A DNA stretch of 42,367 bases. It comes from an uncultured Gammaproteobacteria bacterium (GTDB lineage Bacteria > Pseudomonadota > Gammaproteobacteria > Ga0077554 > Ga007554). The notes below the pieces were generated by a model. That model was not told where the DNA came from. It was given only the letters and a program-made list of their open reading frames with translations, and did not search any database. The stretch's first letter is position 1. The number at the start of each line of letters is the position of its first letter. The stretch is taken from contig CAMTYI010000030.1 of assembly GCA_947085925.1 (NCBI GenBank), positions 1-42,367 on the forward strand. The letters run 5' to 3'. Made by a program: the position numbers and the translations under genes. Below, in pieces: positions 11,757 through 38,074 of this stretch.

Positions 11757-13156
11757 GACGCATCAAACGTATTCATTTTGTAGGCATCGGCGGCGCAGGC
11801 ATGAGTGGCATCGCGGAGGTGCTGCATAACCTGGGCTATCAGGTGTCCGGTTCGGATGTACATGAGAATGCCGCAACGCGCCGCCTGGCAGAGTTGGGTG
11901 TTTCCCTCTCGCTGGGCCACAGTGCGGAGTGCATCAACGGGTGCGACGTGGTGGTGACCTCCACCGCCGTGCGCGCCGATAATCCCGAGGTGATCGAGGC
12001 GCAGCGTTTGCGTATCCCGGTGGTGCCGCGTGCCGAAATGCTTGCCGAACTGATGCGTTTCCGCCAAGGCATTGCAGTGGCGGGCACTCACGGCAAAACC
12101 ACCACCACCAGCCTGGCCGCCAGTCTGCTCGCCGAGGGCGGACTGGATCCCACCTTTGTGATCGGTGGACGGCTCAACAGCGCTGGCGCCAACGCCCGTC
12201 TCGGCGCGGGCCAATATCTGGTGGCCGAGGCCGACGAGAGCGACGCATCATTTTTGTATTTACAGCCGATGATTGCCGTGGTGACCAACATCGACGCCGA
12301 CCATATGGAGACCTACGGTGGCGATTTCGGGCGGCTGCGCCAGACCTTTGTCGAGTTTCTGCACCACCTGCCCTTTTACGGGCTGGCGGTGTTGTGCCTG
12401 GATGATCCGGTGGTGCGCCAGATCCTGCCGCAGGTGACACGTCCGGTGATTACCTATGGCATCGGTGAGGATAGCGGCGCGGATATTTTCGCCAGCGATA
12501 TTCGCCAGGAGCAGGATCGCACCTACTTCACCGTGTCCCGCCCCGGTCAACGCGATTGGTTGACGGTCACCGCGAATCTGGCGGGCCGCCACAATGTGCT
12601 CAACGCCTTGGCGGCGATAGCCATCGCTCATGAAGTGGATGTTGCTGATGATGCGATTCTGCGCGGTCTGGCAGGGTTCCAGGGCGTCGGGCGGCGTCTC
12701 CAGAATTACGGCGAGATCGACACCCCTGCGGGCAGCGTGCTGATGATCGACGATTATGGTCATCATCCGCGCGAGGTCGCCGCCGTGGTGCAGGCGATTC
12801 GCGCCGGCTGGCCGGAACGTCGCCTGGTTGTAGCATTTCAGCCACATCGCTACACGCGCACCCGCGACCTGTTTGAAGACTTTTCCAAGGTGCTCTCCGA
12901 GGTGGACGTGCTGGCGTTGGTGGAGGTGTATCCCGCCGGTGAAGCGCCGATTGCCGGGGCCGACGGGCGCACGCTATGTCGTGCCATCCGGGCACGCGGC
13001 CATGCCGACCCCGTGTTCGTGGAACGTGTTGCCGAACTGCCGGAAACGCTGGCCGGGCTGCTGCGCAAGGGCGACATCCTGCTCACGCTGGGCGCAGGCG
13101 ACATCGGTGCAGCGGCGGCGAAATTGCCGAAGCAACTTAAAGACTTGATGACGTGA
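11753..13156 (+). CDS. murC: UDP-MurNAc:L-Ala ligase
   Basis: [33 protein letters not shown]; ATG 11753 overlaps the murG stop. Confidence 0.98.
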
Positions 13157-13161
13157 TGGCA

Positions 13162-13201
13162 TACCCATGAAGGGCACAATGTACCCATGAAGGGCACAAT
13201 G
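13162..13201 (+). repeat. Two exact tandem copies of the 20-mer TACCCATGAAGGGCACAATG
   Basis: 13162-13181 equals 13182-13201; a 17/20 inverted copy lies at 41623-41642. Confidence 0.95.
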
Positions 13202-14104
13202 CACCACCAACCACCGGCCTTGCGCGGCACCCTGCTCCGTGATGAACCCATGGCGCGTCACACCACCTGGCGCGTGGGTGGTCCGGCCCGGCAGTTTTAT
13301 CAGCCCGCCGACATCGACGATCTGGCGTTGTTCCTGAGCCAGTTGCCGGAGAACGAACCGCTATTTTGGGTTGGTCTGGGCAGTAATCTGCTGGTGCGTG
13401 ACGGAGGCCTTAATGGCACCGTCATCATGATGGTCGGTGCGCTGGGCGGGTTGCAGCATGACGGCGTCACTGTGCGCGCCGAGGCGGGCGTGCCTTGCGC
13501 CAAAGTGGCCCGTTACTGTGCGCGCCAGGGGCTGGTGGGCATCGAGTTTTTCGCCGGGATTCCCGGCACGGTAGGCGGCGCCTTGGCGATGAACGCAGGC
13601 GCCTTCGGTGGCGAGACCTGGCCGCTGGTCGAATCGGTGGAGATCATTGATCACAAGGGTTTGCGCCTTATACGCAGACCGGACGAATACCACGTCGGCT
13701 ATCGCAGCGTCACCGGACCTGCGAGGGAGTGGTTCATCGCTGCGAATTTCAGGCTGCAAAGCGGCGACACCGAGGCCAGCCAGGCGCGTATCAAGGAATT
13801 GCTGGAGCAGCGCAACCGCACCCAGCCGACCAATCAGCCCAGTTGCGGATCTGTGTTCCGCAACCCGCCCGGCGATCATGCGGCGCGGTTGATCGAAGCC
13901 AGCGGCCTGAAAGGCATGCGCATCGGTGGCGCCTGCGTGTCCACCAAGCACGCCAATTTCATTGTGAATACAGGCAATGCCACGGCAGCGGACATCGAGA
14001 CATTGATCGCGCATGTAGCAGATGTGGTGGAGCGGGAACACGGCATTAGATTAATCCGGGAGGCGCACATTATCGGTGAGTGCCTCCCGTCAAAAGAGGT
14101 TTGA
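13187..14104 (+). CDS. murB: UDP-N-acetylenolpyruvoylglucosamine reductase
   Basis: HTTWRVGGPA, GLGSNLLV, GGALAMNAGA, GSVFRNP, KHANFIVN; start 13187 or 13199, both inside the 20-bp repeat. Confidence 0.97.
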   Translation: MKGTMHHQPPALRGTLLRDEPMARHTTWRVGGPARQFYQPADIDDLALFLSQLPENEPLFWVGLGSNLLVRDGGLNGTVIMMVGALGGLQHDGVTVRAEAGVPCAKVARYCARQGLVGIEFFAGIPGTVGGALAMNAGAFGGETWPLVESVEIIDHKGLRLIRRPDEYHVGYRSVTGPAREWFIAANFRLQSGDTEASQARIKELLEQRNRTQPTNQPSCGSVFRNPPGDHAARLIEASGLKGMRIGGACVSTKHANFIVNTGNATAADIETLIAHVADVVEREHGIRLIREAHIIGECLPSKEV

Positions 14105-20071: not shown

Positions 20072-20145
20072 GTTTTTTTAATAGATGGTGATGTAAACGA
20101 AAACATAACATAGACTGGGAGCCTTTATCCTGGGAGTCTACCTAA

Positions 20146-20291
20146 GAAACTGTTCACAATCTCGATCAAGGGATGCAGTGCAGTGCAAGGCAAAATCGAA
20201 CGAAAAAGCGGAGCATACATGAAGTATGTGAGCATTTTGAGTTCGATTTTAACGCAGCAATGCGCCCTTCAGCGAGATTGTGAACAGTTTC
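20146..20291. mobile_element. 146-bp MITE (RPE1-like palindromic element)
   Basis: Perfect 19-bp TIRs GAAACTGTTCACAATCTCG / CGAGATTGTGAACAGTTTC; TAA duplicated on both sides; central CATAC-ATGAA-GTATG hairpin. Confidence 0.9.
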
Positions 20292-20349
20292 TAAGTCAGA
20301 CAGACTTCTAGCTCCTTCCCCCATCCTCCGTTTCTGAATTGATTATCCC

Positions 20350-23131: not shown

Positions 23132-24346
23132 GTGGCGGTAGGATTGACAGGTTTGCCGGAAATGTATCCGGTGGCAGGCATTCGGCTCGGCACGGCATGC
23201 GCAGGCATCAAAAAGCCGGGGCGGCGTGATCTGGTGGTGGTGGAGTTGGCAGAGGGCGCGCGTTGCGCCGCCGTGTTCACGCGCAACGCCTTTTGCGCCG
23301 CGCCGGTGATCGTGGCCCGCAATCATCTTGCCGCCGCCCGCTACCTGCTGATCAATACCGGCAACGCCAACGCCGGCACCGGCGAACAGGGTATGCGCGA
23401 TGCCCTGGCCTGTTGCGCCGCACTGGCGCAACAAGTTGGCTGTATGCCCGAGTCCGTCCTGCCGTTTTCCACCGGCGTGATCGGCGAGCCCTTGCCGGTG
23501 CAGCGCATCACTGCCGGGCTGCCCGAGGCCTACGCAAATCTGAATGAGACGGGCTGGGACGATGCCGCCCACGGCATCATGACCACCGACACTGTGCCCA
23601 AGGGTGCGTCGCGCCACCTGCTGATAGACGGGCAGGCAGTCACCGTCACCGGCATCGCCAAAGGCTCGGGCATGATCCGCCCCGACATGGCCACCATGCT
23701 CGCTTTTGTCGCCACCGATGCGGCCTGTGATCCCACGCTTTTGCAGCAATGCCTGAACGAAGCGGTGGCGGTATCATTTAACCGGATCACCGTGGACGGC
23801 GACACCTCCACCAACGACGCATGCGTGCTGATCGCCACAGGGAAAAGCACACTCGCACCCATTGCCGGCACGTCCAATGATGCCTATAAGCTACTGTGCG
23901 CGGCGGTCGCCGAGGTTTGCACCGAGCTTGCGCAGGCCGTCATCCGCGATGGCGAAGGCGCCACCAAGCTGATCACTGTTGACGTGCGGGAGGGCGCGAG
24001 CGTTGATGAGTGCGCGCTGGTCGCCTATGCCGTCGCCCATTCTCCTTTGGTCAAAACCGCGTTCTTTGCCAGCGACCCCAACTGGGGCCGGATCCTCGCT
24101 GCCGTGGGCCGCGCCGGGCTTGCTGATCTTGATGTCGGACGAATCTCCATCTATCTTGATGAAGTCTGTATCGTCCGCAACGGCGGCCGCGCGCCTGAAT
24201 ACCGTGAAGATCTGGGGCAACAGGTGATGAAACGCGACGAAATCACCGTGCGCATCCACCTAGGACGCGGCACACATCACGACAAGGTGTGGACCTGTGA
24301 TTTTTCCTATGACTACGTGCGGATTAATGCGGAATACCGGACCTGA
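23132..24346 (+). CDS. argJ: Bifunctional ornithine acetyltransferase/N-acetylglutamate synthase
   Basis: [50 protein letters not shown]. Confidence 0.98.
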
Positions 24347-24348
24347 CA

Positions 24349-24365
24349 CAATACTGTTCATTTAA
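24349..24365 (+). mobile_element. Solo IS4-type/MITE terminal repeat
   Basis: CAATACTGTTCATTTAA shares its first 11 nt with the TIR of the MITE at 29697; no partner end nearby. Confidence 0.6.
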
Positions 24366-24397
24366 CCGTTCGTGGTGAGCTTGTCGAACCACCAGCA

Positions 24398-24484
24398 AGC
24401 CCGGATGGAATAAAATGAAATCCGGGGAAATGTGGATGGAGTCACGGTGTTCCCCGGAATCCGCTTGCGCTTCGTCCTGGCTAC
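24398..24484 (+). repeat. REP doublet copy R1 (degenerate)
   Basis: AGCCCGGATGGA..AATCCGGG, spacer containing GGAGT, CCCGGAATCCGC..GCTTCGTCCTGGCTAC. Confidence 0.8.
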
Positions 24485-24486
24485 TT

Positions 24487-24800
24487 GCTGCTGCGGCGAA
24501 GCCGGCACCTTCGCCGTTGCCCGCCCCGACATCGCCACCCAGGTGCGCTTCTGCAAGCAGGAAGAACTGCACAAGGGCATCAAGGCACTCACCGGCGCGG
24601 AGACCGTGGAACACGACGAAGTCAAAATGCTCACCTCCTGTCCCGCCTGCCAGCAAGGCCTGTCGCGCTACGCAGGTGACACCGGCATGCAGACCGACTA
24701 CATAGTGGTGGAGCTTGCCAATAGACTACTCGGCGAAAATTGGCAGCAGATATTTGTCGAGAAAACGAAGCAGGGGGGGATTGAGAGGGTGCTTTTGTAG
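24487..24800 (+). pseudogene. 3'-terminal fragment (~100 aa) of a large FAD/Fe-S oxidoreductase (DUF3683/DUF3400 type)
   Basis: CCGEAGTFAVARPDIATQVRF, TSCPACQQGLSRY and terminal GGIERVLL*; recognisable homology starts abruptly after R1, and the ORF's ATG lies inside the repeat. Confidence 0.8.
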
Positions 24801-24819
24801 GCAAGGGGAAAGCGACTAA

Positions 24820-24875
24820 GTAGTCCGGATGGAGTAACACGCAATCCGGGATTGCGAAGGAGTGACGATCCCCGG
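24820..24875 (+). repeat. REP doublet copy R2 (second arm truncated)
   Basis: GTAGTCCGGATGGAGTAACACGCAATCCGGG, spacer ATTGCGAAGGAGTGACGATC, then only CCCGG. Confidence 0.85.
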
Positions 24876-24983
24876 TACCCATTTCTCTCCTTCCGGGTTA
24901 CCTCGCTGGCAGTTACCGACAGCAATCTGCTTGATGAGATCTCCAAGCGTGAGACGAAATAGAGTAAGGTCAGGAAAGATCCA

Positions 24984-25664
24984 ATGCCAATTCCGAACCC
25001 AATGCGTTTGTTCCATATCACTGCGATTGCCAATCTATCCGCTATTTGCGCGGCGGGGGCGCTACTCTCAAAGAACTCGGGCGCACAAAACGGTATCGCC
25101 TACCAGAATATTGCCCATCAAGGTGCACAGGATGCTCGTTCAATCAAGCAGGTACCGAATCCCCCAGGCGGGAGAGTGCATGATTATGTACCCTTTTATT
25201 TTGCGCCGCGCTCCCCCATGCTTTACGCTATCAATGGCGGTCGTGTGACCGATTGCAACTGGCGGCAAGAGGATATTCTCCACCTGGAAACTACTGTTGA
25301 AAGGGCGGTTTCAGAGGGTGAGGAATTTCTTTTCTACGACCTTAATGCTACTCTGGCTTGGAGCACCCCATTTACCAAATTGCCGGATCTCAATAAGGTA
25401 GCTTGGGACTTGATTTGCGAGGAACCTACGTTGGATGGTTACTGCAAATACTGGCAGAGAAAGATCAATCCTGAACGCTATAGTGACAGGATGGAAAAAC
25501 GTCAGGCGGAATTTTTAGTCAAAAACCAAGTCCCATTGACAAAATTCACCCGCATTGGTGTGATTGATGAAGCAAAGGCGACTCAAGTACGTGCCATTTT
25601 GGTGCAGGCAGGCGTAAACTTGCCAGTCGCGGTCAAACGCGATTGGTATTTTCTGGGTCAATAG
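24984..25664 (+). CDS. darT: DNA ADP-ribosyltransferase toxin DarT (DUF4433)
   Basis: LFHITAIANL, DYVPFYFAPRSPMLY, catalytic QAEFLV, C-terminal WYF; directly upstream of a macrodomain gene. Confidence 0.93.
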   Translation: MPIPNPMRLFHITAIANLSAICAAGALLSKNSGAQNGIAYQNIAHQGAQDARSIKQVPNPPGGRVHDYVPFYFAPRSPMLYAINGGRVTDCNWRQEDILHLETTVERAVSEGEEFLFYDLNATLAWSTPFTKLPDLNKVAWDLICEEPTLDGYCKYWQRKINPERYSDRMEKRQAEFLVKNQVPLTKFTRIGVIDEAKATQVRAILVQAGVNLPVAVKRDWYFLGQ

Positions 25665-25666
25665 AC

Positions 25667-26737
25667 GTGACTATTAAGATTACACAAGGCGATTTATTGC
25701 GGCAGGATGATGTCGATGCCATAGTCAACACAGTGAACTGTGTAGGCGTGATGGGCAAGGGCATTGCACTTCAGTTCAAGAACAAGTGGCCCGCAAATTT
25801 CAGCGTCTACGAGACGGCATGCAAGGCAAAGCGGGTTCGCCCTGGAAGCATGTTCATGTTCGATTCCGGCGGGCTGGTAAAGCCAAACTACATCATTAAC
25901 TTCCCAACCAAGGATCATTGGCGCGGCAAGTCGCGGATTGAATTCATTCATGATGGCTTGGTCGATCTGATCACGCAAGTCAAGCGGCTCGGCATCAAAT
26001 CGATTGCCATTCCTCCATTAGGTTGTGGTAATGGTGGTTTAAATTGGGTTGAAGTACGCTCTCTGATCGAAAAAGCTTTTGCTGACCTGCCTGAGGTGGA
26101 GGTTCGATTATTCGAACCTGCTGGTGCGCCAAACCCTAAGAGCATGGAGGTTAGAACTACGCGCCCACGCATGACGGCCGGGCGTGCGGCCATCCTGAAG
26201 GTACTGAATACCTACCGTGCGCTTGAGTATGGCTTGTCACGCATCGAGGTTCAAAAGCTTGCTTATTTCCTGCAGGAGGCAGGAGAAAATCTCAAGCTAT
26301 CGTTCGTTAAGAATCAATATGGCCCTTACTCGGAGGAATTGCGCCATGCCCTTAATCGGATGGAAGGTCACTTTATCCGTGGGTTGGGTGATGGTGTAGT
26401 TGAAGCGGAGATAGAACCGGTCGCCGAGGCGCTCGCAGAAGCCGAACAGTTCGCTACTGCGAGCGGACATTCCGCATTGGTGCAGCATGTATCCCGCGTA
26501 GCTAGCTTGATCGACGGATTCCAATCCCCTTACGGTATGGAACTTTTGGCGACGGTCCATTGGGTCGCAACACGCGAGCCTAATGTGCGTACGCCTGAAC
26601 AGGCTATTAGTGCCGTACGTGCTTGGAATGAGCGCAAGGCGAGGATCATGCAGCCAACTCATGTGCTTGTTGCGTGGAAGCGGCTTGCCGAACAGCAGTG
26701 GTTGCCGCAGGAAGCAAGCGTAACCCGGGCGCAGTAA
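25667..26737 (+). CDS. darG: Macrodomain DNA ADP-ribosylglycohydrolase antitoxin DarG
   Basis: GDLL..DAIVNTVNCVGVMGKGIALQFK, INFPTKDHW, PPLGCGNGGL; C-terminal QKLAYFLQ, YGPYS, GMELLATVHW; GTG start 2 nt after the darT stop. Confidence 0.94.
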   Translation: MTIKITQGDLLRQDDVDAIVNTVNCVGVMGKGIALQFKNKWPANFSVYETACKAKRVRPGSMFMFDSGGLVKPNYIINFPTKDHWRGKSRIEFIHDGLVDLITQVKRLGIKSIAIPPLGCGNGGLNWVEVRSLIEKAFADLPEVEVRLFEPAGAPNPKSMEVRTTRPRMTAGRAAILKVLNTYRALEYGLSRIEVQKLAYFLQEAGENLKLSFVKNQYGPYSEELRHALNRMEGHFIRGLGDGVVEAEIEPVAEALAEAEQFATASGHSALVQHVSRVASLIDGFQSPYGMELLATVHWVATREPNVRTPEQAISAVRAWNERKARIMQPTHVLVAWKRLAEQQWLPQEASVTRAQ

Positions 26738-26801
26738 CACTCAATCCGGGATGCGACGGAGTCGCGAGCCCCGGATTACGCTATCGCTTCATCCGGGATA
26801 C
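26720..26801 (+). repeat. REP doublet copy R3
   Basis: GTAACCCGG..CAATCCGGG, spacer ATGCGACGGAGTCGCGAGC, CCCGGATTACGCTATCGCTTCATCCGGGATAC. Confidence 0.9.
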
Positions 26802-26823
26802 GCGCTACCATTTTTCGTGCAAT

Positions 26824-27498
26824 TTACGGGGAAAACATTATGTCGAGATCGTCTTTCAGCAAAGTGAGTGTTCCCATAGTGCTTATTCCAACGAGCTGCT
26901 GCAATAGCATGTAGTCTAAACCCGAAAACCCCGATACGCTGTCAACGCCTTCTCGCTGAGCATTGTAGTAATTTTCTAAAACTTGGGCGACGGCTGTCCC
27001 CGTCGATCCAGAATCGATACGTGCCTTAGTGCCAACGAGGGGCTCGCCCACTATTTCTTGATGAAGCAACTGGACATATCGACGGATGGACGCCGACAAC
27101 CACAACCTAGTTTGATCGTGCAAACTGACCCCATTGTCTCCCTGGAGCGTGGCAAGCCCGTCCTCGATCCCCTCAAATACTTCGTCAAGCACATCATGGG
27201 AAACCTGCAATATGGTCGCGACGTAAACGTAGTAGGATGCAACTACAGTGGCCATAAACTGCAAATGAGCCACTTGTGGTTGCGCCTTCAACCTTGAAAG
27301 GAGGCTTTCCTCATGCGTCACGCAACTTTGCTCAATTAAGGAATTTACGCAGGTAGTGGCAGAAGCAAGAGACCACGTAACGCAGTGAAAGCCATATTCC
27401 TTCGGCGTGAGCTGTTTCTTGTCAACGGCGTTGAAGACAAACTTTCGCCTTGGTTTATCAGATGCCCTATCAGAACCAAACCAGCCAAATAACCCCAT
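26824..27498 (-). CDS. Hypothetical protein, 224 aa
   Basis: Long ORF in a lower-GC segment, GGGGTG upstream, candidate promoter; family not recognised. Confidence 0.75.
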   Translation of the reverse strand: MGLFGWFGSDRASDKPRRKFVFNAVDKKQLTPKEYGFHCVTWSLASATTCVNSLIEQSCVTHEESLLSRLKAQPQVAHLQFMATVVASYYVYVATILQVSHDVLDEVFEGIEDGLATLQGDNGVSLHDQTRLWLSASIRRYVQLLHQEIVGEPLVGTKARIDSGSTGTAVAQVLENYYNAQREGVDSVSGFSGLDYMLLQQLVGISTMGTLTLLKDDLDIMFSP

Positions 27499-27534
27499 CT
27501 AATCACCCCATTTGATTGCATGGTCTGAAGCAAC

Positions 27535-27564
27535 ACTCTACTTCGTGCAAAACTGCACTGTCAA
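27535..27564 (-). promoter_or_regulatory. Putative sigma70 promoter for the 224-aa gene
   Basis: Minus strand TTGACA (27564-27559), 18 bp spacer, TAGAGT (27540-27535). Confidence 0.5.
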
Positions 27565-27701
27565 CCGTGATCTTATGGCATTATCAAGGTGTAGGGGTGC
27601 CAAACTTGGGCAAGGGGTAGCCAAGCTCGGGGCTAGCTAAAGGGATAATCATGGAGTGGTGTCCCACGGATTACTACTCGCTAGGCGGGGCCTTATGCGT
27701 G

Positions 27702-28202
27702 TCAGGCCTTTATTGCCAAAACCGATGTTGGCGAAATAACGCCATGCGCCATTAGCGACAGCGAATTCGATATCGAGAACTCGTGTAGGTTCCCAATCTC
27801 AGCAAGATAGGGCAGCGATTCATCCATGAGTGACGCGGCGTTATTGCGTTCTGGATCAAACAACCAGCGGTTATAGCCAGACAGATTTAGCACGCTCGGT
27901 TTAAAGTGTATCATAGCAGAAGAATGTTTCTCGGCTAGTTCGCTTTTCGGGAGCTTAGAAAATACAACGTAGTTTCTACGACTGACATCTCTTTGAAAGA
28001 CATACGGGAAGTATGGCGACGAGTCTTCCACCACCCATTCAAACCTTTTCCCGCGAAAGCGTTTGAGGCCCAAATAATTCAAGAGCATCATTTTTTCGAT
28101 AAAAGTTGCCTGCTTATTGTGATGCCAACAGTACAAAGCACAGAACATGGCGAGGCTTCTGTGCTGCCTCCGAGCACCCTCTCTAATCTCAACTTGTTCC
28201 AT
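27702..28202 (-). CDS. Hypothetical protein, 166 aa
   Basis: ORF with AGGAGA Shine-Dalgarno, AT-richer than the core genes; family not recognised. Confidence 0.75.
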   Translation of the reverse strand: MEQVEIREGARRQHRSLAMFCALYCWHHNKQATFIEKMMLLNYLGLKRFRGKRFEWVVEDSSPYFPYVFQRDVSRRNYVVFSKLPKSELAEKHSSAMIHFKPSVLNLSGYNRWLFDPERNNAASLMDESLPYLAEIGNLHEFSISNSLSLMAHGVISPTSVLAIKA

Positions 28203-28382
28203 GCTTCTCCTAATGTCTAACTTGATATCAACATCAAAAATGGCTTGGCTTTTCTACACCATTGGTGTCTTTGAGCTGTGCACTTTTTCTATGATTGCAA
28301 AGTCGCAATAAGACACATTGTGCGGCGAAGGTTCGCATTCTTTGATGCCGCCGTCAAGTCACGGTGCATGGTCTGTTAGCAA

Positions 28383-28463
28383 GTAACCCGGATGGAGCAG
28401 CACGCAATCCGGGATGCGGCGGAGTGTCGATCTCCGGATTACGCTACGCTTCATCCGGACTGC
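28383..28463 (+). repeat. REP doublet copy R4
   Basis: GTAACCCGGATGGAGCAGCACGCAATCCGGG, spacer ATGCGGCGGAGTGTCGATCT, CCGGATTACGCTACGCTTCATCCGGACTGC. Confidence 0.9.
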
Positions 28464-28508
28464 CCGCTGGAAAGGAAAACCGGGCCGAACGCGACCCACC
28501 CCTCCGTC

Positions 28509-28862
28509 TTAAAGAATAGCCAACACAACCTCCGGCGGGCGCCCTACCGCTGCCTTACCATCAACCACCACGACGGGTCGTTCCATGAGGATGGGGTGCG
28601 TAAGCATGGCGGCAATCAGATCGTCATGTGTCAGTTTTGGATCATTCAGCCCCGCCTCCTTGTACACTGCCTCCTGCGTGCGCATCAATTCGCGTGGTGC
28701 CATGCCAAGGAAGGAGAGTATTTTTTTCAACTCGGTCTTGCTGGGTGGGTTTTTCAGGTATTCGATGACAAGCGGCTCGATACCTTTGTCGCGCAAAAGC
28801 TGGAGCGTTTGGCGTGATTTGCTACAATGCGGATTATGGTAGATGGTGACGTCGGCGTGCAT
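28509..28862 (-). CDS. arsC: Glutaredoxin-type arsenate reductase family protein
   Basis: IYHNPHCSKSR, RELMR, ERPVVV, GRPPE. Confidence 0.9.
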   Translation of the reverse strand: MHADVTIYHNPHCSKSRQTLQLLRDKGIEPLVIEYLKNPPSKTELKKILSFLGMAPRELMRTQEAVYKEAGLNDPKLTHDDLIAAMLTHPILMERPVVVVDGKAAVGRPPEVVLAIL

Positions 28863-29683: not shown

Positions 29684-29696
29684 GCCCGTCCTGACC

Positions 29697-29788
29697 CAAT
29701 ACTGTTCGGATATGTGAAAATACATAATATAAATCAATAAGTTAGAATTCTTTTTCTGCGCGAAAGGTTGCTTAGCCGAACAGTATTG
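29697..29788. mobile_element. 92-bp IS4-type MITE
   Basis: 13-bp perfect TIR CAATACTGTTCGG (16/18 extended); exact 10-bp TSD CGTCCTGACC at 29687-29696 and 29789-29798; internal IHF consensus at 29732-29744. Confidence 0.93.
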
Positions 29789-29799
29789 CGTCCTGACCC

Positions 29800-30725: not shown

Positions 30726-30814
30726 GTAGGTTGGGTCAAGCGAAGCGGACCCAACATTGCACTGAATTAATGATTTTGTTGGGTCCGGAGCTTGCACTCC
30801 TTGACCCAACCTAC
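30726..30814. repeat. REP doublet of a second family (GTAGGTTGGGT)
   Basis: GTAGGTTGGGTCAAG..GGACCCAACA / TGTTGGGTCC..CTTGACCCAACCTAC between convergent genes. Confidence 0.85.
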
Positions 30815-30848
30815 ACGCTACGATTTTGCTATCGATTTAGAAATGGAA

Positions 30849-37997: not shown

Positions 37998-38074
<77 letters not shown>

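Follow-up and report, generated by a model that had tools for sequence, protein, structure and literature searches.

A variable accessory-gene slot between resident REPINs of a low-copy family in an uncultured gammaproteobacterium

How do defence genes come to stand, one group after another, between copies of a single repeat in a block that carries no integrase? The question is raised by a short stretch of the genome of an uncultured gammaproteobacterium (assembly GCA_947085925.1, here G000). The window analysed is the entire contig CAMTYI010000030.1 (C30, 42,367 nucleotides (nt)) of an assembly of 2.64 Mb in 205 contigs that is 85% complete. Between the core genes argJ and arsC, four doublets of repetitive extragenic palindromic (REP) sequences, R1 to R4, separate the 3′ fragment of an oxidoreductase (flavin adenine dinucleotide (FAD) oxidase) gene, the toxin–antitoxin pair darT–darG (DarTG) and two orphan genes. 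A preliminary description had taken the block for a gene-capture array in which one repeat unit is duplicated each time foreign DNA is captured, comparable to an integron or a CRISPR array and driven in trans by a REP-associated tyrosine transposase (RAYT). The observation behind that proposal is confirmed here and its interpretation is supported in part. The four units are REPINs (REP doublets forming hairpins) of a low-copy, RAYT-associated family that is largely confined to one genus, and the interval from R2 to R4 is a variable slot with different cargo in each species. To the reading that we favour, an integrase-free hotspot of accessory genes, apparently mostly defence genes, framed by resident REPINs, we assign an even chance of being correct.

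Each unit comprises a left REP (GTAG/GTAA-CCCGGAT-loop-ATCCGGG), a spacer of 14-24 nt and an inverted right REP (CCCCGGAT-loop-ATCCGGG-CTAC). An nhmmer profile built from the four units of the window placed them, all on the plus strand, at 24398-24489, 24818-24903, 26718-26806 and 28381-28468 (E from 4e-19 to 8e-23), and a covariance model, made from 12 units of five genomes and run on the window as well as on the genomes, returned the same four (Table 1). Profile, covariance model and direct reading thus agree on four co-oriented doublets at the places given in the preliminary description, whose asymmetric spacers read exactly as quoted for all four; neither model found a fifth unit in the window, and Rfam gave no match in 24200-28700 at E ≤ 1. 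Alignment of the 12 units yields the consensus ends GTAGCCCGGATG...CATCCGGGCTAC, and the REPIN terminal inverted repeat is 17 nt long (AGCAAGTAGCCCGGATG / CATCCGGGCTACTTGCT). The GTAG/CTAC feet have partly decayed in the window: R2 has GTAG, R3 and R4 have GTAA, and R1 has lost its left GTAG while keeping the right CTAC. Every unit can be folded into one long hairpin, the consensus fold has 20 pairs, three of them with compensatory changes, and the DNA folds of the single units are predicted at -15 to -23 kcal/mol, with z-scores of -1.7 to -2.8. The units are spaced by 424, 1900 and 1663 nt, and each lies 17-46 nt 3′ of a stop codon or overlaps one.

On the whole assembly, the covariance model gave 14 rows that resolve to eight distinct sites, namely the four of the window and those on contigs C200, C56, C1 and C4. 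The genome-wide mapping that the preliminary description had proposed therefore puts half of the copies in these 4.1 kb, an arrangement for which a rough formula (computed with n=9) gives a chance probability of ~2e-6; the common orientation of the four, to be expected by chance in one case in eight, is weak evidence on its own. In the genus comparison set of five genomes (G000 to G004), the model finds 8, 5, 9, 10 and 9 distinct sites, respectively. Outside this genus (g1), weak matches were seen in two of the five genomes examined, G005 (genus g2) and G008 (genus g3), and none in G006, G007 or G010. A wider survey of the JGI metagenome contigs with an exact 21-mer of the REPIN turned up a single locus, an uninformative result.

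Comparison within the genus shows that most of the units are old. Orthologues of R1 stand directly after argJ in G003 and G001, and R1, which is 57-59% identical to R2-R4 and 70-76% identical to its own orthologues, clusters with the latter as a separate subtype. Orthologues of R2 are found 3′ of the full-length oxidase gene in G004, in G002 and on C200 of G000 itself, and R4 has positional orthologues with common flanks in G004, G002 and G003 (in the last, before arsC and with housekeeping genes upstream); the arsC gene of G001 has no REPIN. Three genes of sister species (argJ, FAD-oxidase and arsC) have these orthologues at their 3′ ends, so that R1, R2 and R4 are older than the cargo. R3 is the only unit without a positional orthologue. 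The identities within the array are 73% (R2-R3), 81% (R3-R4) and 72% (R2-R4), and R3 is 89% identical to the REPIN before arsC in G003 and 85% and 84% identical to further copies in G003 and G004. Copies made together with species-specific cargo should be the most alike, and those in the array resemble one another no more closely than copies of different species do; this argues against duplication of a unit at capture, a central element of the preliminary description that also finds no support in the orthology of R1, R2 and R4 or in the in-array identities, which range from 57 to 81%. Elsewhere, too, singleton REPINs that follow core genes keep their places across genomes (G004 C4:101868 and G002 C27:1560 are examples).

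What varies is the DNA between the units. The order in both G004 and G002 is the full-length oxidase gene, the R2 orthologue, other DNA (4.0 kb and 2.6 kb, respectively), the R4 orthologue and arsC. In G000, the slot holds DarTG and the two orphan genes; in G004, a defence-associated reverse transcriptase (DRT) of type UG19 (PADLOC RT_UG19, 5.4e-159) and a transposase of the IS4 family of insertion sequences (IS); in G002, three open reading frames (ORFs) with no defence match. Known defence systems are thus present in two of the three occupied slots, the three ORFs of G002 and the two orphan genes of G000 being without a PADLOC match. Different content between the same flanks, the mark of an integrase-free hotspot, is found in these three genomes, and G003 and G001 are arranged otherwise. 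G000 loses its homology with G004 at 24909 and regains it at 28378, at the inner edges of R2 and R4, whereas between the window and C200 it continues for 38 nt past R2, to 24941. The expectation in the preliminary description that relatives would differ exactly at the repeats is therefore borne out as to the different genes between the R2 and R4 orthologues, and only partly as to the breakpoints, which lie at or near the repeat edges and not always exactly on them. In G004, a 19-nt partial left end of a REPIN directly precedes the R4 orthologue; it is the scar of a recombination at a REPIN.

The repeats did not come with the cargo. The covariance model has no match in the 32 foreign darTG loci nearest to that of G000, from which we conclude that the repeats belong to the host, and their arrival together with darTG was rejected. 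The DNA identity to those foreign loci is at most 73% and is confined to the coding region; the nearest DarG, 84% identical as a protein, is in a metagenome-assembled genome (MAG) of the Burkholderiales. Donor or sibling copies of the cargo were also sought in a comparison set of 11 other genomes of the order, in which the cargo DNA has no match except through R3. The G+C content is 46-53% across the cargo and 57-67% in argJ.

From these data the hotspot might have worked as follows. R1, R2 and R4 are old REPINs, resident just 3′ of argJ, of the 1290-amino-acid (aa) FAD-oxidase gene and of arsC; the oxidase and arsC genes are convergent, and the DNA between their REPINs is the slot. Cargo would be swapped or stacked there by host recombination acting on incoming DNA, either homologous or homology-facilitated illegitimate recombination, with the conserved flanks, including the ~90-nt REPINs, serving as portable homology. 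An unequal crossover between the right-hand REPIN of one allele and the left-hand REPIN of another might then leave two stacked cassettes with an internal unit, R3. The truncated oxidase piece is what a rearrangement left behind when the oxidase-R2 flank became linked to argJ-R1. Such a hotspot fits proposals in the literature. One study proposes that integrase-free insertions, which need neither integrons nor transposons, enter by homologous recombination at REPs (PMC3390384); for Escherichia coli and Pseudomonas aeruginosa, another describes dedicated defence hotspots in which no mobile element can be detected (PMC10121019); and the minimal mobile elements of Neisseria are presented as variable content between conserved flanks (PMC3787668).

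The oxidase fragment deserves separate treatment, for it was the first 'cassette' of the supposed array and was taken for captured foreign DNA. It proves to be a partial duplicate, 457 nt long, of a resident locus on C200 (90.6% identity to C200:30913-31368), and it comprises the last ~107 codons of the oxidase gene, R2 and 38 nt downstream. The copy of the gene on C200 is complete (1290 aa) and has its own REPIN after it, then the same 38 nt, beyond which the DNA is specific to G000. Farther along on C200, at positions 2819-2983 of C200:31369-37063 (locus L214), we noted a ~165-nt repeat which, being present in three to nine or more copies in each of four relatives, looks like a miniature inverted-repeat transposable element. 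The junction of R1 with the fragment reads ...GTCCTGGCTACTTGCT/GCTGCGGCG (slashes mark joins or cuts), with a 3-nt overlap, GCT. Its right side starts GCTGCGG after ...GGCTACTTGCT. In the R1 orthologues, ...GGCTACTTGCT is likewise the end and gives way to unrelated sequence, while in the intact oxidase gene the join corresponds to ...GAACGCT/GCTGCGG; the break thus falls within the last 0-3 nt of the 17-nt terminal inverted repeat of the REPIN. The fragment is, to judge from these sequences, the scar of a rearrangement. No second copy of the oxidase 5′ part, which would be the reciprocal product of an argJ/oxidase rearrangement, was found in G000, and the tldD region that follows argJ-R1 in G003 sits at contig ends elsewhere in the assembly (C98 and C183). 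The preliminary description had also held that genes are cut at the repeats. This is true of the oxidase fragment and only marginally of darG, which has its last ~6 codons and stop inside R3 but which matches the DarG models up to their ends.

The region 3′ of argJ is rearranged among the relatives regardless of cargo, and in none of them does arsC adjoin argJ. G001 has two co-oriented REPINs of the R1 type 81.5 kb apart (C26:1039-1138 and C26:82695-82793), the distal one with the right flank that directly follows argJ-R1 in G003. An '81 kb insertion' between the two was considered and rejected: the 11.7 kb examined are core DNA placed elsewhere in relatives, and the case is therefore a rearrangement with REPINs at both ends rather than an island.

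A break so close to the end of a REPIN raises the possibility of a transposase. Many RAYT paralogues are present in the genus, each one examined being flanked by its own REP family, and two of them carry the REP subtypes of the window. G004 encodes an intact RAYT of 174 aa (C4:58743-59240; also given as 12741-13265 of locus L089, G004:C4:46000-62000), flanked upstream by a REP like the left REP of R1, the two sharing the loop, and on its 3′ side by one like the right REP of R2. In G003, the full-length FAD-oxidase gene has a frameshifted RAYT (on C38) directly downstream, where R2 would be expected by orthology, and a small lipoprotein gene and then another REPIN come after this RAYT. These two genes bear out the assignment of the units to a RAYT-associated family of REP doublets. 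The preliminary description's search for a RAYT flanked by the same REP is thus answered for G004 and G003; in G000, no close orthologue was found in the 85% of the genome that is assembled, the best matches having identities of 57, 55 and 51% and REPs of other families at their flanks, and its absence cannot be concluded with 15% of the genome missing. The proposal that the array is driven in trans by a cognate RAYT is accordingly left without its enzyme in this assembly.

The corresponding rival explanation is that the Y1 HUH transposase of the family, acting in trans on single-stranded DNA (ssDNA), cleaves at or near REPIN ends and at nearby C/T dinucleotides and joins the ends, so that REPINs would become docking sites resembling attachment (att) sites and would acquire end-precise junctions with foreign or ectopic DNA. 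It accounts for junctions precise to the REPIN end, which host recombination does not, and the R1/oxidase junction on the last nucleotides of the terminal inverted repeat is of this kind; both parents of that junction read GC/T (...CTACTTGC/T and ...GAACGC/TGCTGCGG), which is compatible with such cleavage and not diagnostic, a 3-nt overlap containing CT being weak evidence. In a study of E. coli TnpA-REP (PMC3333891), the enzyme needs GTAG and the REP hairpin, cuts ssDNA at C/T both beside an inverted REP (iREP) and at distances above 400 nt, and is able to transfer strands in vitro. Truncations at REPIN termini recur outside the window. On C56 of G000, a RAYT ends exactly where a variant REPIN of 123 nt has its left terminus, and in the Rhs locus of G004 (4184-13304 of L089), which has four good and two weak co-oriented 123-nt variants, a truncated Rhs fragment adjoins one variant and N-terminal fragments of RAYTs adjoin at least two. 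The cognate RAYT of G003 sits in the same locus, and the REPIN after the full-length oxidase gene on C200 likewise precedes strain-specific DNA. Against all this stand the missing close orthologue in G000, the greater age of three of the four REPINs relative to the cargo and the lack of excision joints in the contigs of four sequencing runs, although such contigs drop rare variants. Moreover, RAYTs are generally viewed as domesticated and vertically inherited, and they are not known to mobilize genes. A RAYT may have had a part in this block, and RAYT-assisted capture as the explanation we hold to be unlikely. Less likely still is the more general idea that the REPINs and RAYT of the genus form an att-like docking platform, with cleavage at ...CTACTTGC/T and at C/T sites and joining of the ends, which we regard as doubtful.

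Two further observations were made at these loci. At C56:1092-1622 of G000, a small hairpin insertion interrupts the truncated RAYT, which belongs to another family, and a second REP doublet, of yet another type, follows the 123-nt variant. In the Rhs locus of G004, the variants are interspersed with the Rhs fragment, the repeated RAYT fragments and an IS30-like (rve) gene, and the intact cognate RAYT lies in the same cluster.

The hotspot explanation has weak points of its own. Plain homologous recombination does not predict a junction on the terminal 0-3 nt of a REPIN, or the other truncations exactly at REPIN termini just described for the RAYT on G000:C56 and for the Rhs and RAYT fragments of G004:C4. 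At identities of 72-91%, the REPINs have perfectly matching runs of only ~20-28 nt, a marginal length for RecA. No empty slot and no cargo common to two genomes were found among those compared, so that the exchange itself is not observed; in four genomes of sister genera, the oxidase gene has neither a REPIN nor arsC within 1.5 kb downstream. The three genomes with the order oxidase-REPIN...REPIN-arsC are related and therefore not independent, and some breakpoints lie near the repeat edge rather than on it, as the homology with C200 up to 24941 indicates. Finally, the hotspot model does not settle the origin of R3.

A further rival is a simple coincidence, in which REPINs settle without harm behind the 3′ ends of genes while foreign genes land independently in the same long convergent intergenic region, through an IS or illegitimate recombination, R3 having transposed later between the convergent operons and the repeats being uninvolved. 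The positions of the units relative to stop codons agree with this, R3 in particular occupying a classic REP position between convergent operons. The IS4 transposase in the cargo of G004 could have brought DNA in, singleton REPINs persist after core genes, arsC in G001 does without one, and the region after argJ is rearranged in several genomes whatever the cargo. With only 5-10 sites per genome, however, a fresh insertion into ~100 nt of recently acquired DNA is improbable; four of the eight sites of G000 lie within 4.1 kb, and a second co-oriented cluster is found in the accessory Rhs locus of G004; homology with G004 breaks on both sides at inner REPIN edges; and the junction of the oxidase fragment is precise to the REPIN end. 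On balance we consider coincidence unlikely.

The analogy with integrons and CRISPR arrays fares worse. The block has no recombinase gene of its own, and G000 does encode an integron integrase (C154:20372-21313, TIGR02249, 493.5 bits against a cut-off of 265), which might in principle recombine a cluster of attC sites lacking an integrase (CALIN). The attC sites resident in this genome (R'' ..CTAAC, R' GTTAG.., core AAGGGGACACGCC) are, however, unrelated to the REPIN units: the core AAGGGGACACGCC occurs 17 times on six other contigs and never on C30, C154 gave no match to the REPIN profile, and inspection of the units revealed no RYYYAAC / GTTRRRY ends on either strand. In addition, the cassettes are in mixed orientation, darTG on the plus and the two orphan genes on the minus strand. 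As to a CRISPR-like array, the units are only 57-81% identical, their spacing is irregular and the 'spacers' are genes. The analogy drawn in the preliminary description thus fails on structure, both readings were rejected, and we attach next to no likelihood to them. The genuine chromosomal integron of G000 is to be found at C154:20372-22666 and on C39, C62, C131, C66 and C22, with at least 17 attC sites and contigs that break in the array; given its unrelated attC family and the lack of such sites on C30, the array of the window is neither part of it nor a CALIN.

As the MAG is fragmented, the soundness of the assembly across the repeats had to be examined, which was done with Logan contigs from four runs of four studies that cover the stretch. 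Single contigs bridge R2, R3 and R4, and one runs from argJ-R1 into the oxidase fragment and ends 29-30 nt past the junction, at the exact point where k-mers become common with the second oxidase copy on C200. In runs X1 and X2, the depth is flat, ~157-200, across flanks and island, and no contig of the four runs joins sequences so as to skip a unit or a cassette, with the reservation that contigs drop rare variants. An artefact in which the repeats served to link contigs from two strains binned together could draw on the second oxidase 3′ end on C200 at 90.6% identity, on the position at contig ends (C98 and C183) of the DNA that follows argJ-R1 in G003, and on run X4, in which the island has a depth of ~6.6 against ~40 for argJ. 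The difference in X4 indicates that strains are mixed in that sample, the island being a minority beside a strain that resembles G003 after argJ. The bridging contigs from different studies and the flat depth in X1 and X2 speak against such an artefact, and the R1/oxidase join, which overlaps by only 3 nt, is not a collapse inside a repeat. Misassembly, which the preliminary description had named as a possible objection, is not supported and appears very improbable.

The genes of the block and its flanks are listed in Table 1. DarT and DarG are adjacent and both exceed the NCBIfam equivalog cut-offs (223.6 bits against 150 for toxin_DarT and 465 bits against 250 for antitoxin_DarG, the latter model being matched from 1 to 338 of 338), so that the pair qualifies as DarTG; darG likely starts at the GTG at 25667, as read from the sequence. 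Orphan gene 1 has no match in Pfam, PADLOC or NCBIfam and retrieved only itself in a word search of 5.8 billion proteins. The 12 homologues of orphan gene 2 are 41-57% identical, and none is named. Its AlphaFold2 model is of moderate quality (mean predicted local distance difference test (pLDDT) score 67.6) and has no fold match in the PDB at E ≤ 0.001, the weak matches being mostly winged-helix proteins. R4 lies 38 nt past the arsC stop codon (28509-28511), just beyond the terminator-like hairpin of arsC at 28498-28481. The core genes are well conserved, ArgJ being 94-96% identical in four genomes of the genus and in one further genome of the family (G010), and the arsC DNA 86-90% identical in G001-G004. 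Protein-family scans and a tRNA search agree with the preliminary description that the block contains no integrase, transposase or tRNA gene, the sole tRNA gene of the window being at 37998.

Table 1. Positions of the repeat units, genes and other features of the argJ-arsC interval (coordinates of the window).
Feature	Position	Strand	Evidence
argJ, left-flank core gene	23132-24346	+	Pfam ArgJ 2.1e-146
Short palindromic repeat of another family, between the argJ stop and R1	24339-24396		BLAST matches on C32, C27 and C145
R1, REPIN of distinct subtype	24392-24491	+	Covariance model, 74 bits
DUF3400 FAD-oxidase 3′ fragment (ORF)	24432-24800	+	Pfam DUF3400
Partial duplicate of the FAD-oxidase locus, 457 nt	24487-24941	+	90.6% identical to C200:30913-31368
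R2, REPIN 17 nt 3′ of the stop of the oxidase fragment	24816-24908	+	Covariance model, 87 bits
darT, ssDNA ADP-ribosyltransferase toxin of DarTG	24984-25664	+	Pfam DarT 9e-62; PADLOC DarT 3e-62; NCBIfam toxin_DarT
darG, macrodomain antitoxin	25643-26737	+	PADLOC DarG 9e-134; NCBIfam antitoxin_DarG
R3, REPIN between the convergent darTG and orphan operons	26716-26808	+	Covariance model, 91 bits
Orphan gene 1, 224 aa	26824-27498	-	No family match
Orphan gene 2, 166 aa, member of a rare hypothetical-protein family	27702-28202	-	12 homologues
R4, REPIN	28379-28470	+	Covariance model, 89.5 bits
arsC-family gene, right-flank core gene	28509-28862	-	Pfam ArsC 1.1e-21

Several other small repeats were noted in the window. 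The palindromic repeat between argJ and R1 shows a very high summed contig depth and many loose ends in all four runs. A 110-nt inverted-repeat element at 29688-29797, between apaG and the next gene, corresponds to a gap in the alignments of the relatives, and a ~90-nt repeat at 30726-30815 has copies on at least 10 contigs of G000; both look like further small mobile palindromes. At 20136-20301, just upstream of secA, there is an inverted repeat of 37 nt whose arms are 86% complementary and 92 nt apart.

REPIN/RAYT systems, DarTG, DRT and integrase-free hotspots are each already known. The units described here share with the REPIN-RAYT systems of P. fluorescens SBW25 and of E. coli (bacterial interspersed mosaic elements and TnpA-REP) the pairing of inverted REPs that have GTAG/CTAC at their feet and are set apart by a short spacer, the folding into one hairpin, a Y1 gene flanked by the same REPs in relatives, and a family nearly confined to a genus with orthologous copies across species. 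Such systems have tens to hundreds of REPIN copies per genome, whereas here there are 5-10 sites, short of the many dispersed copies that are expected of them; a single accessory block of 4 kb holds half of the copies of G000, truncated genes directly adjoin several copies, and the genus has many RAYT paralogues, each with its own REP family, instead of one per genome. With hotspot #37 of E. coli, the core defence hotspots of P. aeruginosa and the minimal mobile elements of Neisseria, the slot has in common a varied cargo, with known defence systems in two of the three occupied cases here, between the same flanks, the lack of an integrase and an exchange through the flanks that is inferred; it differs in being bounded and internally divided by co-oriented copies of one REPIN family and in having one flank rearranged at a REPIN terminus. 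For Pseudomonas, by comparison, mobile elements are reported to lie mostly in REP deserts (PMC3390384). The block is like integron cassette arrays and CALINs in that imperfect palindromes separate its cassettes and it has no recombinase, and it differs in the ways given above: repeats that are not attC, mixed cassette orientation and a real integron with unrelated attC sites. As genes, the adjacent darT and darG are ordinary; what sets them apart is the mere ~42 nt of cargo-specific DNA before darT and a stop codon supplied by R3. Our literature search found no description of a variable slot for defence genes that has copies of a single low-copy REPIN family at its borders and as internal dividers, nor one that combines such a slot with a cognate RAYT in the same locus of a sister species and with gene-truncating junctions at REPIN ends.

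How defence genes enter hotspots that are free of integrases and transposons is an open question; hotspots of this kind have been described in E. coli and P. aeruginosa (PMC10121019). REPINs and RAYTs, for their part, are commonly seen as passengers of the stable core genome that are passed on vertically. Should host recombination alone have been at work, the locus described here would be an ordinary hotspot in which REPINs are portable homology, and it would caution against reading repeat-punctuated blocks of genes as capture arrays. If, on the other hand, the REPINs do act as docking sites, HUH-driven gene capture would build REPIN-punctuated stacks of defence and toxin genes, such as DarTG, DRT and orphan Rhs modules, without any integrase. 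A REPIN family small enough to be counted, a RAYT in the same locus of a sister species and a junction precise to the REPIN end make the link between REPINs, RAYTs and the turnover of such hotspots a testable one.

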